Source: Perkinsus olseni (Eukaryota). From it: a stretch of DNA of 36,002 bases. The position numbers and the translations under genes were made by a program. Location: assembly GCA_013115125.1 (NCBI GenBank), contig JABANN010000352.1:1-36002 (forward strand), given 5' to 3'. Shown one piece after another: positions 894 to 35,812 of this stretch. Position 1 is the stretch's first letter, and every line of letters begins with the position of its first letter. The notes under the pieces are model-generated. The model saw only the letters and a list, made by a program, of their open reading frames with translations. It had not been told where the DNA came from and did not search any database.

Positions 894-3800
894 ATGAGTG
901 CTCAGGGGATGCCTCCGCACCTGCTGGCGCTCTTTTGCCCGAGGCCGCCGCAAGCGTATGAGAAGCCGCAGATGCGCAAGGCGCCGGTGACTGCTCATCA
1001 CTTGACAGGTGAGGGGCTCGATCTTGACCTATTTTGTACCTCTCAAGGTGAACCTCAAGATATTTCTGAGATCAGAAAGGGATATTTAACGATTGAAAAT
1101 GATTCTATTCCGTTTCTTGCCATCTGCAACCTTGGATGCCCTAGCGAGACTCAATGCTGCAATGCGACCTTATCTGCATCCTCCCCGCTTCAACCTTAGA
1201 TATTCCGAGTCACTCGCTCTTATCAGGTTTGGCGGATTTTGTCGACTCCTTCGAAGGTGGTGAGCCGCCGGAACGTGAACACAACGAGACGCCTTTGGAA
1301 CGGAAGAAACGGAAAGCTAAAGAGAAGAAGGAAAAGTACTACGCGGGGATCGATCCCGGGACCTCTCGTGAGAGAGTCGAAACACTTATCCTAGTCGATC
1401 AATCGAGCGCTCGTCATTGTGAGAGTGTCAAATTCCCTTGTCTCCCTCCGAGGGAGGCTCTTTCGGAATTCATTACCACCGGCCGACGCCTACCGATACG
1501 GTTGGTAGAATCGCACTCGAGAGAGGTTAACCAATTCGAGTCCAGCTGTCGAGTATCTTTACGCTACGTAAATTACAGACCCGACCTCGCCCGCCTTCAC
1601 CCGTGATCGAGCTTGGATTCTTCGGTGGAACACCGGACGCTGGAGATGAGCTGTCGCTCTCTCGCGAGCCGTTATCGTAATCGAAACTTCGTATCTTATG
1701 TCGACCCGCGGTTAACGCAGAATTGCTCATGTTGTCGACTGCAAGATGCAATTTCGTCCCTTCCCGATCTGGTTTCGGTATGTGAGCGGGCGAGAGGCTG
1801 CTGAGTCGACGTGGCTATTTGGGCTGCGATCGTGAGATTTCAAATTGGTTGTGAAAAAGTTGGTATTGACGTCCTGTGGACACTCTTTGTCCTAAAAAAC
1901 GCGAGCTGTAAGTAGCCCGATACTACACCGGGTCAGCCATCGGTCGTGTTGTGGCTGATTCCCGCTAGCCTGATCGAGGCTGGGAAGCAGAAAATGAAAA
2001 CTTTTAGGATGCAGTTGCCGGCAATGATGGCGAGAAATTATGGTTTAGCTCACTGGTGCAAGGGTGCTGACTTATTTTTATTGGTTTAGTGAGATGCCCG
2101 GGGTCGGGATTGAACCGGGGTCGTTGGGTGTCGAGAGTGAATTCCCGTTCAGATACGAGGAGTTGATTGAACGTCTACGAGCGGACTATAAGCCTCAGAA
2201 TAATGACAAAGTGATCTCGGGAGATTCGAACCGGAGGCCTATCTTGAAATATTCGCTGTGCGCGAGAAGATTCTCCATTTTGTCAGGTATCTGGGGATCC
2301 CTTCAAAACTCTCTTCGTTGCGAGAGTCGCGTATGAGACGACGGAGAAGCAACTGCAGCATATCTTTGGGGAATATGGTCCGATACGAAAGGTAAGATTC
2401 TTCGCTGTGCGCGAAGATAATTTCCTGGTTACACTGCTCGGGACATATCTTTGAGGTTGAGCTGGCGTGTGATGGAGATGAAAGATATGGGACTGCTAGC
2501 ATGATTCAATCTTGTGGCGCGCGGTAATTTTTGGTATCTTCAGGTTACCATCGTCCATGATAAGGAAGGTAGAAGTCGCGGATATGCTTTTATCGAATAT
2601 GACAACGAAGGCAGCCTCAAGCAAGCTTACAAAAACGTACGTCGCGCGCCACGAAATTCTCCCCTCTATTTTTCGTTACTGTCAGGCAGATGGTATCAAA
2701 ATCGACGGGCGCCGAGTGCTGGTTGATGTAGAGCGAGGTAGGACAGTTTCGGGATGGATACCTCGCCGGATGGGCGGTGGACGGGGAAGTGGAAGGTGAT
2801 AGAGGAGGGCGGGGTTCTGAATTTTACTTACAATGGCTGCTGTGTGGCAGCGATGAAATTATGAGCAAGATACTAGTATCATTAGTTTCCTGAGCTCAAA
2901 CTGTGAAGGTCGAGCATGGAAGATATTTCTTCAGGATTGCCAAACCGAAGTCTAAGAAGGGCCCGCCGGGCGGTCCTCCGCCATCACCATTTGGTCCGCC
3001 CGAATGGGACTCCGGGTACCCGCCGAGGATGTCGTCCTGGGGTAAGGGGAAAGGTGGTATGATGTTTGATGATGGGTATGGCAAAGGGAAGGGGAAAGGA
3101 AAGGGAGGACCGCCACCGAGATGGGGCATGGACGACTTTGGGAAGGGCAGAAAGGGGTAATAGCTTACGGGATTTGGTGGAAATGTGGTATCGTTAATAG
3201 CGGAGATGTAGCGGGAGTATCTTAGCTTGGCTCTTGTATTACACAAAAAGCAGCATCTTTCTGTGCTGACGCTTTTGCCCTTCACGGAGAGGTCGCTGTC
3301 ATCAGTGATATCTTGTGAGTGGGAGAGATAATTTTTACGGATGTTTGCACGGGATGGTGCTGCTGTCGTTCGACGGCCTTAGCTATTCAACCACAATTGT
3401 GAGGTCGTCTACTGGAGGATCGAGTCGTCGTTGGTTGGATTGTCTTGGGAGAAGGAGAGAAGTGACAGTGTGGATTACGAGGGATGAGCGTTTATTTGTG
3501 CGAGAAATTTTCACGAAAATTGGGTAAAATTTTTCCCAGCTTGGATGATTTCACCCAGATACGGTGGACCACCTCCGTACGAGTCCAGCTGGGGCAAGGG
3601 TAAAGGAAAGGGATCTAGGTGAGTGGATGTTGGTCAATCTTGCAATCTTGCAATTCCTCAACGCTCAGGTATGATGATGGTGGCCCGCCCCCTCACAGGC
3701 CGTTTGATGAGTTCGGTCCTCGCGTGAGAGATCGTGATAGAGATCGTGCTAGGGCTAGGGACGAGGATGCTGGGGAATCGCGGTGAGTTAAATGCGGAAA

Positions 3801-4411
3801 AATGTCGCTGGGAGGATTCGAACCGGGGACCTTGTGTGACAGCACTGAGTTTGGTATCTTCTGCTTCGAGGTTAACCTATGGGGAATCGTATTTAACGGA
3901 TGCGAATTTTTCTTCCGAATCTATCGACTGTTTTGGTTCATCCATCTCTCGCTAGAAAGACGAATGCCGATGATATTTTTCGCGAATCTTTGTAGTCTTT
4001 TTTGGACTATTTCTCATGTTAACGGCTTCCCCGAAAACGGAAGAAATCTGAATTTTCCAGATTTTCTAAAGTTTTTCATTTATTAGGCGGACAAATGGTG
4101 ATTTTTCAGTTTCAGAAATTTCCAAATCTTTGATGATTCGCTTATCTTTCTAGTCTTTTTCGAAGCATATTCGATCTGTGTTATATCGATCACGTTCGCG
4201 CTTCTGCTCCGAAAACGAAAGGACTCAGAATTTTTCAGATTTTCTGTTGTTTTTTCGCTAGACTAGAGAGGCTAATTATGATGGGATTTTTCGAGTATAT
4301 TTTCTCTTCAGTCGTGACCGCGATAGAGACCGCGAGCGTCGAGAGCCCCGAAAAAACAGATCGCGCAGCCGCGAGCGTCGACGTCATCATCACCATCACG
4401 ATGAAGATTGA
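894..4411 (+). CDS. SNRNP70: U1 snRNP 70 kDa protein (10 exons, ~361 aa)
   Basis: Phase-consistent GT-AG model: 894-1008, 1227-1335, 2153-2210, 2287-2391, 2544-2636, 2686-2795, 2935-3156, 3559-3618, 3669-3782, 4312-4411. Encodes [31 protein letters not shown]1 [39 protein letters not shown] and an RD/RE/RS tail. Confidence 0.96.
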
Positions 4412-4460
4412 ATGATAGATTTATGGGTAGCTTCTTAGGTTGAAGGTGTTGTGTTGATCG

Positions 4461-34386: not shown

Positions 34387-34643
34387 ACACAGTGAGAATC
34401 TTGCAATCTTGCTCAATCTTACAATTCCTCAACGCTGTAGTGGTGTTAGGTTATTTAATTTCGTGGCGCAGTGACGCTTCCAGATGCCATATGTGGGGTA
34501 ATACAGTTTCATGGCTCATCGCGAGTGTTTAATTGGTTGCCATGGGAAATCTTGCAATCTTGCGTTTCCTCAACGCGGTGTGGCAGTGGGCTATCTCGGA
34601 ATCTTGCAATCTTGCTTTTCCTCAACAGCCATTACCTTTTCGT

Positions 34644-35812
34644 ATGAAGCGACTCTTCGTCACATTCGTGGCGACAGCGGTCAGTCTCCGAGTTGGAGGT
34701 AATTTTTTTTCCGGAAAATTTCGGTAAATTTTCGATTTTTTCAGATTTCGAGGAAGCGGAGGTCGGTGGTGTTTGCCCGGAGACGGCCGGACACGTGGAT
34801 GCTCGAAGTCGCCTGGGAATCGATTCGGTAATTTCGTGGCGCGTGACGATTTTTTTGTGGTAATTTTTTTCAGATTCTTTCCTGTGCGCAATATACAAGA
34901 GAACATGTTCGAGGAAATTATGAATTTGTTAGTTATAATAAAGGAAGTAAAAATGCAGGGCGGCGGGATCGATCCGGGGACCTTTCGACTGCCCATCAGA
35001 TACGACTTGTATGTGGAGCAAATCTTGCGAGTGCGTTGCCCTTGGCGAGTGCCCTTCTGGCGACCCCGAGGTAAAAAGGCGGATTTTTCCCCAATTTGTG
35101 GGAAAAAATTTTGGTGGAGGCAATTTTTCGGGTGGAAATTCATTTTTACTTGGACTTATTTTTCTGTTCTCATCAGCCCTGGGGATTTGCACGCGCGTAT
35201 CTTAGGTCGATGCGTGTCTTTCACAGGTGAGGATTCGGCCACTTTGCCCCTATATTTCGCTACGCGTGCGAAAAATTCGGTAAAAATTTCCGCTTGGCTT
35301 GCCAGTGTGTAATAATTTCGTGGCGCGACGGATTTTTTGTTGTTTTCGCTTCAGGGCGGTTGGAGAAGTGCTTTGATAGTTCGTCTGTTGAATACTGAGT
35401 TGGCAGACAGGCCGGTCCGGTATGATAGGAAGCCTCATGTGGTGGGAGGGGACCCAGTGTCGATGGAAGATTCTGGCATCGGTAGGTCGTGGGTTCGATC
35501 CCTGGCTGCGGCATTTTAAAGGCAACTTCTTTGTTGTGAATCGTTTCATTCGGGAAGAAAAATTTTCATATGAAAGGAGAGTGGAAAATAAAAAGGAAGA
35601 AATATGAGTTTTCATAGATGTCGGTTGTGGGATTCGAACCGGGGACCTTCCGTATGTCAGAATTAATACCACAGCGAAGCCTCCTGCCCGACACCGTCAT
35701 TTGGAGGTTACCAAAGTATAGGAACAGCGGAGTGCGATCGCGTAGGATTCGTGCACACCAACTTTTCGCCAAATCGTGGATGTTTCAGAGTTCGCCGCGC
35801 TCGCCCCGGTGA
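34644..35812 (+). CDS. Hypothetical multi-exon protein; frame and ends uncertain
   Basis: Series of GT-AG-bounded open segments. ATG 34644 gives a signal-like MKRLFVTFVATAVSL, but alternative phases also join. No family recognised. Confidence 0.3.

Follow-up and report, generated by a model that had tools for sequence, protein, structure and literature searches.

Short tRNA-Phased B-Box Units in Introns of Perkinsus as Candidate Solitary TFIIIC Sites

Introduction

Solitary B boxes, without an A box or a tRNA gene, are known from the extra TFIIIC (ETC) sites of Saccharomyces cerevisiae, whose eight loci are intergenic; the chromosome-organizing clamp (COC) sites of Schizosaccharomyces pombe are a comparable system. 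Here we describe units that resemble ETC sites in a 36-kb contig of Perkinsus olseni (JABANN010000352.1, our C2627, from a 39.9-Mb assembly), analyzed over its whole length of 36,002 nt and called the window below. We see about an even chance that these tRNA-derived units of ~35–40 bp, phased as tRNA positions ~44–77, are kept in introns, in thousands, as solitary TFIIIC (tauB) sites. They are ETC-like by their sequence features; membership of that class would need TFIIIC occupancy. The likeness extends to conservation past the 11-bp core, for at ETC loci the subunit tau91 contacts the downstream bases (excerpts of PMC11724288). In contrast to the eight loci of yeast, there would be thousands of candidate sites here, in short Pol II introns, and the units further differ in their tRNA phasing with A73 and a T-run and in being copied between loci.

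Other repeats invite comparison as well. Alu is a ~300-bp short interspersed element (SINE) with an A box, a body, a poly(A), and target-site duplications (TSDs). Its TFIIIC-bound B boxes in mammals are likewise many and repeat-borne, and are proposed to organize chromatin near Pol II genes (excerpts of PMC7014570), whereas the Perkinsus units are ~35 bp long and lack a body, and no TSD is seen at the boundaries of their introns. The units share tRNA-phased sequence and a terminator with tRNA-derived SINEs and tRNA pseudogene fragments, and a 140-nt tRNA-like repeat in the window has the same 5′ block, but ~93% of the units have no A box, and they show no shared body, single consensus, or traceable donor and a strongly uneven conservation. 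Finally, in introners and introner-like elements (Micromonas, Aureococcus, Amoebophrya) a repeat also forms much of many short introns in unrelated genes (excerpts of PMC11282704 and PMC7789003), and the host here is an aquatic protist related to dinoflagellates. In Perkinsus, however, whole introns are unlike and only the ~35-bp unit is alike, there is no TSD at the intron ends, and larger introns mix the unit with other motifs. No published description of the units was found in the literature searched, with subscription journals mostly beyond reach.

Results

Structure and Number of the Units

In tRNA numbering the unit spans some 35 bases, from about position 44 (weakly from 35) to 77. AGGTC is followed by CC and one variable base; next come the B box and a stretch of exactly 10 variable bases, after which an A and a T-run close the unit. 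The preliminary description of this DNA had placed the conserved part in the variable loop and T arm; the B box and AGGTC are indeed kept, but so are the A and T-run exactly 10 bases past the B box (B box + 10 + ATTTT, 287 genome matches against 0 in the control). Of 141 strict B boxes, 58 are followed by ATTT at a spacer of 10 and 3 at a spacer of 11, and indel variants are nearly absent. In the profile-selected set, positions 66–69 are nearly flat and positions 72–76 stand at 0.74–0.81; the T-run at 74–76 is absent from about half of the copies. Sequence beyond the unit is unrelated between copies (mean pairwise identity 0.25 at −60 to −21 and at +28 to +67). An upstream A box accompanies 11 of 168 copies, compared with 53 of 60 tRNA genes, and ARAGORN calls no tRNA at the matched site in 10 of 10 loci. 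Some of the 34 copies are more, or less, than bare fragments: the match at 631 is the head of the 140-nt repeat with A and B boxes, those at 6956 and 12525 look by eye like longer decayed tRNA-like sequences, and the one at 31400 is a weak exonic match. The flanks quoted for individual copies are present at 6964 and, on the minus strand, at 21893–21905, and a third is at 19891 (quoted as 19890).

The strict B box GGTTCGANYCC occurs 15 times in the window, against a mean of 0.2 (maximum 2) in 200 dinucleotide shuffles. A profile scan, whose control gave one match in 623 kb of reversed sequence, finds 34 non-tRNA copies (16 on the plus strand, 18 on the minus) besides one tRNA-Arg(CCG) gene. The resulting 0.94 copies per kb bears out the earlier figure of about one tRNA B-box fragment per kb for the window, but as a general rate that figure is a hot-spot value: elsewhere 200 kb hold 20 copies, or 0.10 per kb, in 20 stretches chosen regardless of motif (mostly long contigs, not a random sample), so that the window is ~9 times denser. 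Against the genome mean the window is 7- to 63-fold over for B-box patterns, depending on the pattern, and ~30-fold over for two other intron motifs. Over the whole genome, 2,271 sites match the strict B box (control 208), and A-box-anchored patterns have 124, 190, and 132, mostly tRNA genes. The genome total lies roughly between 1,500 strict non-tRNA sites, after subtraction of tRNA genes, and 4,000, scaled from the 20 copies in 200 kb.

Relation to tRNA Genes and SINEs

A single SINE with body, tail, and TSDs, the outcome that the preliminary description had set against its own proposal, fails as an explanation: flanks are 25% identical, segments 63–72 are distinct in 163 of 168 copies, and repeats across the boundaries of the 16 copy-bearing mapped introns, the only place scanned for TSDs, are 0–3 nt long. 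The flanks of near-identical copies are unrelated as well. Outside the 11 copies mentioned above, an A + B-box head occurs only in the separate 140-nt repeat at 574–716, a candidate SINE or RNA polymerase III (Pol III) RNA. The head of this repeat matches the 5′ block of the fragment family, and for 27 fragments, counting ties, no source lies nearer on the 5′ side. The 3′ part of the repeat gives no such match, and the RNA fold of the repeat is unremarkable (z −0.34).

Nor are the units recent copies of tRNA genes. A set of 202 fragments, from which 17 non-tRNA matches with an upstream A box and every relaxed ARAGORN call were excluded, was compared with 96 unique tRNA ends, which cover 37 anticodon labels and may be incomplete. 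At the 3′ end (63–73), 3 fragments come within one mismatch of a tRNA, and none of the 3 also matches on the 5′ side. Outer T-stem pairing is 0.47–0.48 in the units, 0.96 in tRNA genes, and 0.45–0.52 after column shuffling, and no covariation is seen at pairs 49–65 and 51–63. The varied tRNA backgrounds once proposed for the fragments survive in one respect, since the column composition of positions 44–73 mirrors the genome's tRNA pool, but so few copies trace to tRNA genes, and some are such near-twins of each other, that varied donors are only loosely right.

Several other origins were considered and rejected. Permuted or split tRNA genes do not account for a T-run after position 73, and an upstream acceptor partner is present in 29 of 168 copies against 40 in a control region. 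Positions 74–76 read TTT and not CCA, which speaks against mature tRNAs or retroviral primer sites. Simple two-part chimeras of present tRNA genes leave the 3′ halves without a donor match. The repeat at 574–716 is not the sole master, its 63–81 part differing from even the best-matching copy at 5 of 19 positions. Dada transposons, which insert at the A box (excerpts of PMC3706591), have no tie to the units.

It could be argued that the units descend from tRNA genes or SINEs, pieces of which were long ago captured in introns, for instance during break repair, and now decay neutrally, their intact B boxes being a search artefact. This would fit the composition of columns 44–73, the 5′ block shared with the tRNA-like repeat, and the 17 matches with an upstream A box that stand beside the 202 fragments, some of which resemble full-length pseudogenes; in P. 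marinus, moreover, five tRNA types account for >500 genes, and tRNA-targeting Dada transposons occur (excerpts of PMC3706591). The near absence of donor matches at either end and the exact 10-nt spacing (58 vs. 3) fit it poorly, as does the evidence on constraint.

Constraint on the B-Box Bases

A position profile of matches is circular and is not used here as evidence of constraint; the genome was therefore searched with the flanks alone. An exact flank-only pattern gives 132 matches against 5 in the control. In 92 of the 100 flank-only matches listed, by eye and with ~10 true tRNA genes among them, G53, T55, C56, A58, and C61 are all kept, and in 35 non-tRNA flank-only sites these five key positions are 98% intact. 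When a flank-only profile from separate training loci was applied to 747 kb, all five key positions were intact in 60 of the sites found, four in 9, three in 2, and fewer in 28; the corresponding numbers for the reversed control are 0, 0, 4, and 37. No tail of decayed copies is seen.

When uniform decay is simulated to match the observed stem loss (d ~0.4), the five positions fall to ~0.6 (0.61), AGGTC to 4% (37% observed), and ATTT to 7% (39% observed), so that stem loss and intact positions are not reproduced together. Uniform neutral decay cannot explain key positions that are ~97–98% intact in searches blind to the B box, and decay of the B-box positions at the neutral rate, named beforehand as a reason to abandon the proposal, is thus not what is seen. 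Within a single CpG, C56 is invariant and G57 variable (1.00 vs. 0.82, 38 sites). The scores of the 5′ and 3′ flanks show no correlation (rho 0.12, p 0.37) in those 60 of 80 strict B-box sites whose total score is positive. By comparison within one genome, the B-box bases appear constrained relative to their neighbors. The uniform-decay form of the neutral-relic explanation is largely refuted, and neutral relics in general now seem to us quite improbable.

Placement in Introns

Sixty introns were mapped between 10.8 and 25.7 kb by spliced alignment to proteins from both P. olseni and P. chesapeaki (SF3A3 and a gene with an AEP domain), two long introns being swapped for the finer splits given by the P. 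chesapeaki alignment. All 17 copies in these two homology-mapped genes are intronic, in 16 introns (chance 1.3e-4 at 59% intron content), and 6 of the 16 introns are 48–74 nt long; introns of P. marinus are mostly <100 bp (excerpts of PMC3101222). Among the 15 of 64 joints listed, at least four of these introns, with five copies between them, appear in the contigs of each of four runs, of which one is recorded as RNA. Further plus-strand introns are predicted from open frames, and a single weak match (31375–31408) is exonic. Intronic contigs in run X1 were not counted as Pol III transcripts.

The preliminary description had seen copies that abut exons. Positions 20378 and 19863 (quoted as 19864) are intron ends in all four runs, 7981 and 34175 are GT donors with open spliced frames, and 35482 is a GT after an open frame. 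Exons do cut into the unit from the 5′ side, in line with that description, but they cut the 3′ side as well. A donor built into the unit was rejected: GT at tRNA positions 35–36 is present in 21 of 168 copies, among them antisense copies, where a donor is impossible.

Both orientations occur (7 sense and 10 antisense mapped copies); the signal therefore lies in the DNA. A role in pre-mRNA, as a T-loop hairpin or as a splicing element near splice sites, could draw on the closeness of copies to splice sites and on the T-run of sense copies, which could serve as a polypyrimidine tract (intron 20325–20378). With 10 of 17 mapped copies antisense, T-stem pairing at the level of shuffled columns, and no covariation, we regard such a role as very improbable.

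Copying between Loci

Seven full-length window copies were searched genome-wide at up to 3 mismatches in 34. No relative turned up for five of them; a sixth is matched at 3 mismatches, and the seventh at both 1 and 3 (0.002 expected at ≤1). Since most of these copies lack any close relative, their intact B boxes are not simply a matter of youth. An eighth copy (19875–19908) has a 94% match over 36 nt. In the three pairs examined, identity begins and ends at the unit edges, and 11 close pairs with unrelated flanks have only positions 44–77 in common. Close pairs number 13 against 0.7 after shuffling, and 22 of 203 copies have a neighbor at ≤2 of 19 non-B positions, against 2.3. Within close pairs, in sets biased by choice, difference rates are 26–30% at variable B-box positions, 10–13% at the positions used to pick the pairs, and 2–3% at the five key positions. 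The outer T stem is broken in both members of the closest pair (35492 and its twin), so the source was not a functional tRNA and information passes from copy to copy, by insertion or conversion.

These pairs raise the question of a selfish micro-element, a ~35-bp unit copied from locus to locus, of which only copies with an intact B box are recopied, being bound or transcribed; each copy would be young and, once inserted, neutral, some insertions creating the very intron that holds them. Twins that share positions ~44–77 and nothing outside, the excess of close neighbors, and the short introns filled by copies near their splice sites would all be expected of it. Such an element should, however, leave a tail of decayed copies, which is missing, and relatives, which five of seven tested copies lack (though the assembly may be incomplete). 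The ~93% of copies without an A box, the T-run missing from about half, and the want of a TSD (0–3 nt at intron boundaries) also count against it, as does a GT donor whose offset is not fixed, lying 10 to 21 nt before G52 in mapped sense copies near the donor. Two features of introners were sought with the same outcome: near-identical whole introns at unrelated sites were not found, identity being confined to 44–77, and neither TSDs (0–3 nt in 16 introns) nor terminal inverted repeats (TIRs; by eye on short introns) were found at intron ends, although TSDs and TIRs are absent from some introners too (excerpts of PMC11282704). A selfish element is in our view unlikely, if still a substantial contender.

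Genes, Other Intron Motifs, and the Feature Table

The window carries, in order, a U1-70K-like gene, an unnamed plus-strand gene, SF3A3, the AEP-domain gene, a striatin-like gene, and an unnamed last gene. The first has an RNA recognition motif (RRM) match and an exon spliced onto the RRM exon with an open, continuous frame; the name U1-70K is presumptive. The minus-strand gene near 17–22 kb encodes the AEP-domain protein and not CDC48. A window exon matches P. olseni proteins at 100% identity and a protein of P. chesapeaki at 94%; for an SF3A3 exon, identity to P. olseni is 91%. No paralogue of 19075–21400 was found in the assembly, and no relatives in the scanned metagenomes. On the plus strand, the open frame at 1–372 weakly matches a SWIM zinc finger (E 0.093) and may be the last part of a MULE-type transposase. 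GC skew follows gene orientation over the whole window (~+0.2 in plus-strand genes, ~−0.2 in minus-strand genes), and GC content is 47%, compared with 51–56% in sampled stretches. At 31813–31818 some RNA contigs differ from the assembly by small indels, which may be an allele, a strain difference, or the edge of a splice-site alignment. The tRNA-Arg(CCG) gene has C at position 55, where the other genomic Arg(CCG) genes seen have T; at two loci (L051, L047) tRNA-Thr genes stand in tandem arrays with many variant copies.

Introns of the window also carry other motifs. Exact cores of the hairpin-like GTATCTT..AGGTYGA..AAGATAC number 34 in the window and 1,138 genome-wide (control 9). This motif stands, for example, in introns 12343–12391, 18743–19029, and 21564–21727, and is also found in tandem arrays of 34, 41, and 42 nt. 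The motif AATTTCGTGGCGCG, which resembles E2F or SCB-type sites, occurs 20 times in the window and 743 times in the genome (control 1), in 20522–20837, 30299–30337, and other introns. Introns 17537–18084, 21077–21143, 19645–19700, and 12196–12252 hold further motifs, namely GCGGAGCGAAG, AAGCGCGCGC, ATCGATCG, and ATCTTGCAATCTTGC..CCTCAACG; they occur in either orientation and are almost missing from exons.

Table 1. Units and associated features of the window. Units are profile matches; introns called predicted, as well as 1336–2152 and 2211–2286, rest on open frames, the others on spliced alignment and/or RNA joints. Relatives are genomic matches at ≤3 mismatches.
Position	Strand	Feature	Context
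574..716	+	140-nt tRNA-like repeat, A box + B box	10 genomic places including this one; other nine 77–100% identical, several at contig ends
1331..1364	-	Unit	Antisense, 5′ end of U1-70K intron 1336–2152; T-run supplied by exon
2091..2124	-	Unit	Antisense, close to 3′ end of intron 1336–2152
2207..2240	-	Unit	Antisense, 5′ end of intron 2211–2286
3799..3832	-	Full unit	Antisense, near 5′ end of predicted intron 3783–4311; no relative
6571..6604	+	Unit	Sense, most of predicted 51-nt intron 6564–6614; one frame open
6948..6981	+	Unit ending longer decayed tRNA-like repeat	Repeat 6880–6990; close relatives on other contigs, also L078 near 2575
7237..7270	-	Unit	Antisense, ends at predicted 3′ splice site (AG 7272–7273); intron predicted
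7998..8031	+	Unit	Sense, predicted 65-nt intron 7981–8045; spliced frame open
10949..10982	+	Unit	Antisense, 64-nt SF3A3 intron 10916–10979
11508..11541	+	Unit	Antisense, SF3A3 intron 11478–11900 (may be two introns)
12500..12533	-	Weak unit	Sense, intron 12448–12684; A-box-like stretch upstream, decayed full-length tRNA-like copy
12829..12862	+	Unit	Antisense, 74-nt intron 12779–12852; exon cuts 3′ side
14499..14532	-	Unit	Sense, most of 48-nt intron 14493–14540
16003..27038	-	AEP-domain gene	Intron-dense, ~41 introns mapped; ~1,300 aa; C962R-like AEP primase domain; homologues in P. olseni and P. chesapeaki
19114..19147	-	Unit	Sense, 3′ end of intron 19109–19274 (joint in 4/4 runs)
19239..19272	-	Full unit	Sense, immediately past GT of intron 19109–19274; no relative
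19556..19589	+	Unit	Antisense; intron 19373–19584, its 5′ splice site at tRNA position 72
19875..19908	+	Unit	Antisense, 3′ end of intron 19863–20216; near-twin on C2628 (94% over 36 nt), flanks unrelated
20340..20373	-	Unit	Sense, 34 of 54 nt of intron 20325–20378; no relative
21889..21922	-	Unit	Sense, near 5′ end of intron 21813–21935; no relative
22799..22832	+	Unit	Antisense, 5′ end of intron 22715–22832
22949..22982	+	Unit	Antisense, near 3′ end of intron 22929–23052
23165..23198	+	Unit	Antisense, most of 53-nt intron 23149–23201; RNA exon piece begins 23202
23605..23638	+	Unit	Antisense, 69-nt intron 23576–23644
24399..24432	-	Unit	Sense, near 5′ end of intron 24239–24441; RNA exon pieces
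25551..25584	+	Unit	Antisense, intron 25181–25624
28407..28440	-	Weak unit (score 21)	Upstream of striatin-like start codon
30719..30752	-	Unit	Antisense, predicted intron 30698–30780; RNA exon piece 30572–30695
31375..31408	-	Weak match (score 23), may be chance	Inside RNA-covered exon piece 31319–31517
32184..32255	+	Real tRNA-Arg(CCG) gene	Sole tRNA gene called in window; inside striatin-like gene
33811..33844	-	Full unit	Antisense, just beyond RNA exon piece ending 33800
34182..34215	+	Full unit	Sense, predicted intron 34175–34270; no relative
34950..34983	-	Full unit	Relative with 3 mismatches on C2879, flanks unrelated
35484..35517	+	Full unit	After GT at 35482; twin on C815, 1 mismatch/34, flanks unrelated; outer T stem broken in both
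35615..35648	-	Unit	Profile match

Discussion

Several lines of evidence are consistent with TFIIIC as the protein that would hold the B-box bases in place. In the yeast structure, the DNA under tauB extends from +37 to +76, one base contact being at G47, and tau91 touches positions downstream from the B box that are conserved at ETC loci (excerpts of PMC11724288); by this analogy, the extent of the unit matches the tauB footprint. Human TFIIIC contacts conserved G, T, and C positions in the B box, and C56G weakens binding 370-fold (excerpts of PMC11811891). The genome encodes a tau138 orthologue (P0133), with B-block and extended winged-helix domains above the Pfam cut-offs, and tau95 (E 2.9e-9); a sequence search of the PDB with tau138 returned nothing relevant. 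Of the original suggestion of mass-deployed intragenic TFIIIC sites distinct from a single SINE, the intragenic placement and the exclusion of one SINE hold up, and TFIIIC genes are present, whereas the varied tRNA donors that went with it do so only in the loose sense given above.

We propose that the units would have arisen from tRNA genes or tRNA-like repeats, as their exact phasing and column composition suggest. The bare ~35-bp unit would then occasionally have been copied or converted between unlinked introns, in either orientation and without TSDs, as seen in the three pairs, and would have been tolerated in introns only, where all 17 mapped copies lie. The A-box half and T-stem pairing were apparently lost while the TFIIIC-contacted bases stayed, a pattern that selection may explain. 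By analogy with yeast and human, tauB could bind without an A box, and so without productive Pol III transcription, and may act on the chromatin of intron-dense genes.

A number of observations weigh against this proposal. First, the A + T-run follows 39% of units but 13 of 146 true tRNA genes, and it is not known to belong to the B box. Second, over all 80 strict B-box sites the scores of the two flanks do rise together (rho 0.49), which we ascribe to chance B boxes but which age structure would also give. Third, the decay simulation has no indels or context-dependent rates and uses imperfect donors, with one modal sequence per anticodon label and relaxed tRNA calls. Fourth, mapped copies lie nearer to splice sites than under random placement in the same introns (p ~0.003, n = 17), as intron-creating insertions would. 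Fifth, 55 of the 60 mapped introns carry the B-box unit or at least one of six other, unrelated motifs; a general copying process may therefore be the real cause. Closeness to splice sites and the six further motif families point equally to a general copying of short DNA pieces into introns. Finally, the three near-twins and 13 close pairs show that copying shapes the family, so that selection may operate when units are copied and not on behalf of the host.

The six other motifs are nearly absent from exons (1 match in 5.4 kb), and unit density correlates with theirs over 40 stretches (rho 0.61; 0.53 in the 20 chosen regardless of motif and 0.16 in 20 motif-dense ones, tRNA genes counted). Given these shared motifs and this correlation, the B-box unit is one word in the intron vocabulary of a compartment. 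One speculative mechanism, to which we give slight credence, is that protein-protected DNA (the ~40-bp tauB footprint, and perhaps the footprints of other motifs) is copied or captured into breaks and becomes intron sequence. Sites would then amplify and evolve by selection for binding at the copying step, without a transposase, TIR, TSD, or RNA intermediate, and the introns of Perkinsus would be built up from the footprints of proteins.

Whichever explanation holds, the unit inflates lists of tRNA candidates in Perkinsus annotation (3,889 first-look candidates). If the units spread by binding-dependent copying, they would show that binding-site amplification and intron building can proceed without a recognizable transposon. 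If TFIIIC binds them, Perkinsus would have thousands of intragenic TFIIIC anchors in Pol II genes, far above the eight ETC loci of yeast, and would offer a testable system for a Pol III-independent role of TFIIIC in a lineage next to dinoflagellates, with their unusual chromatin.

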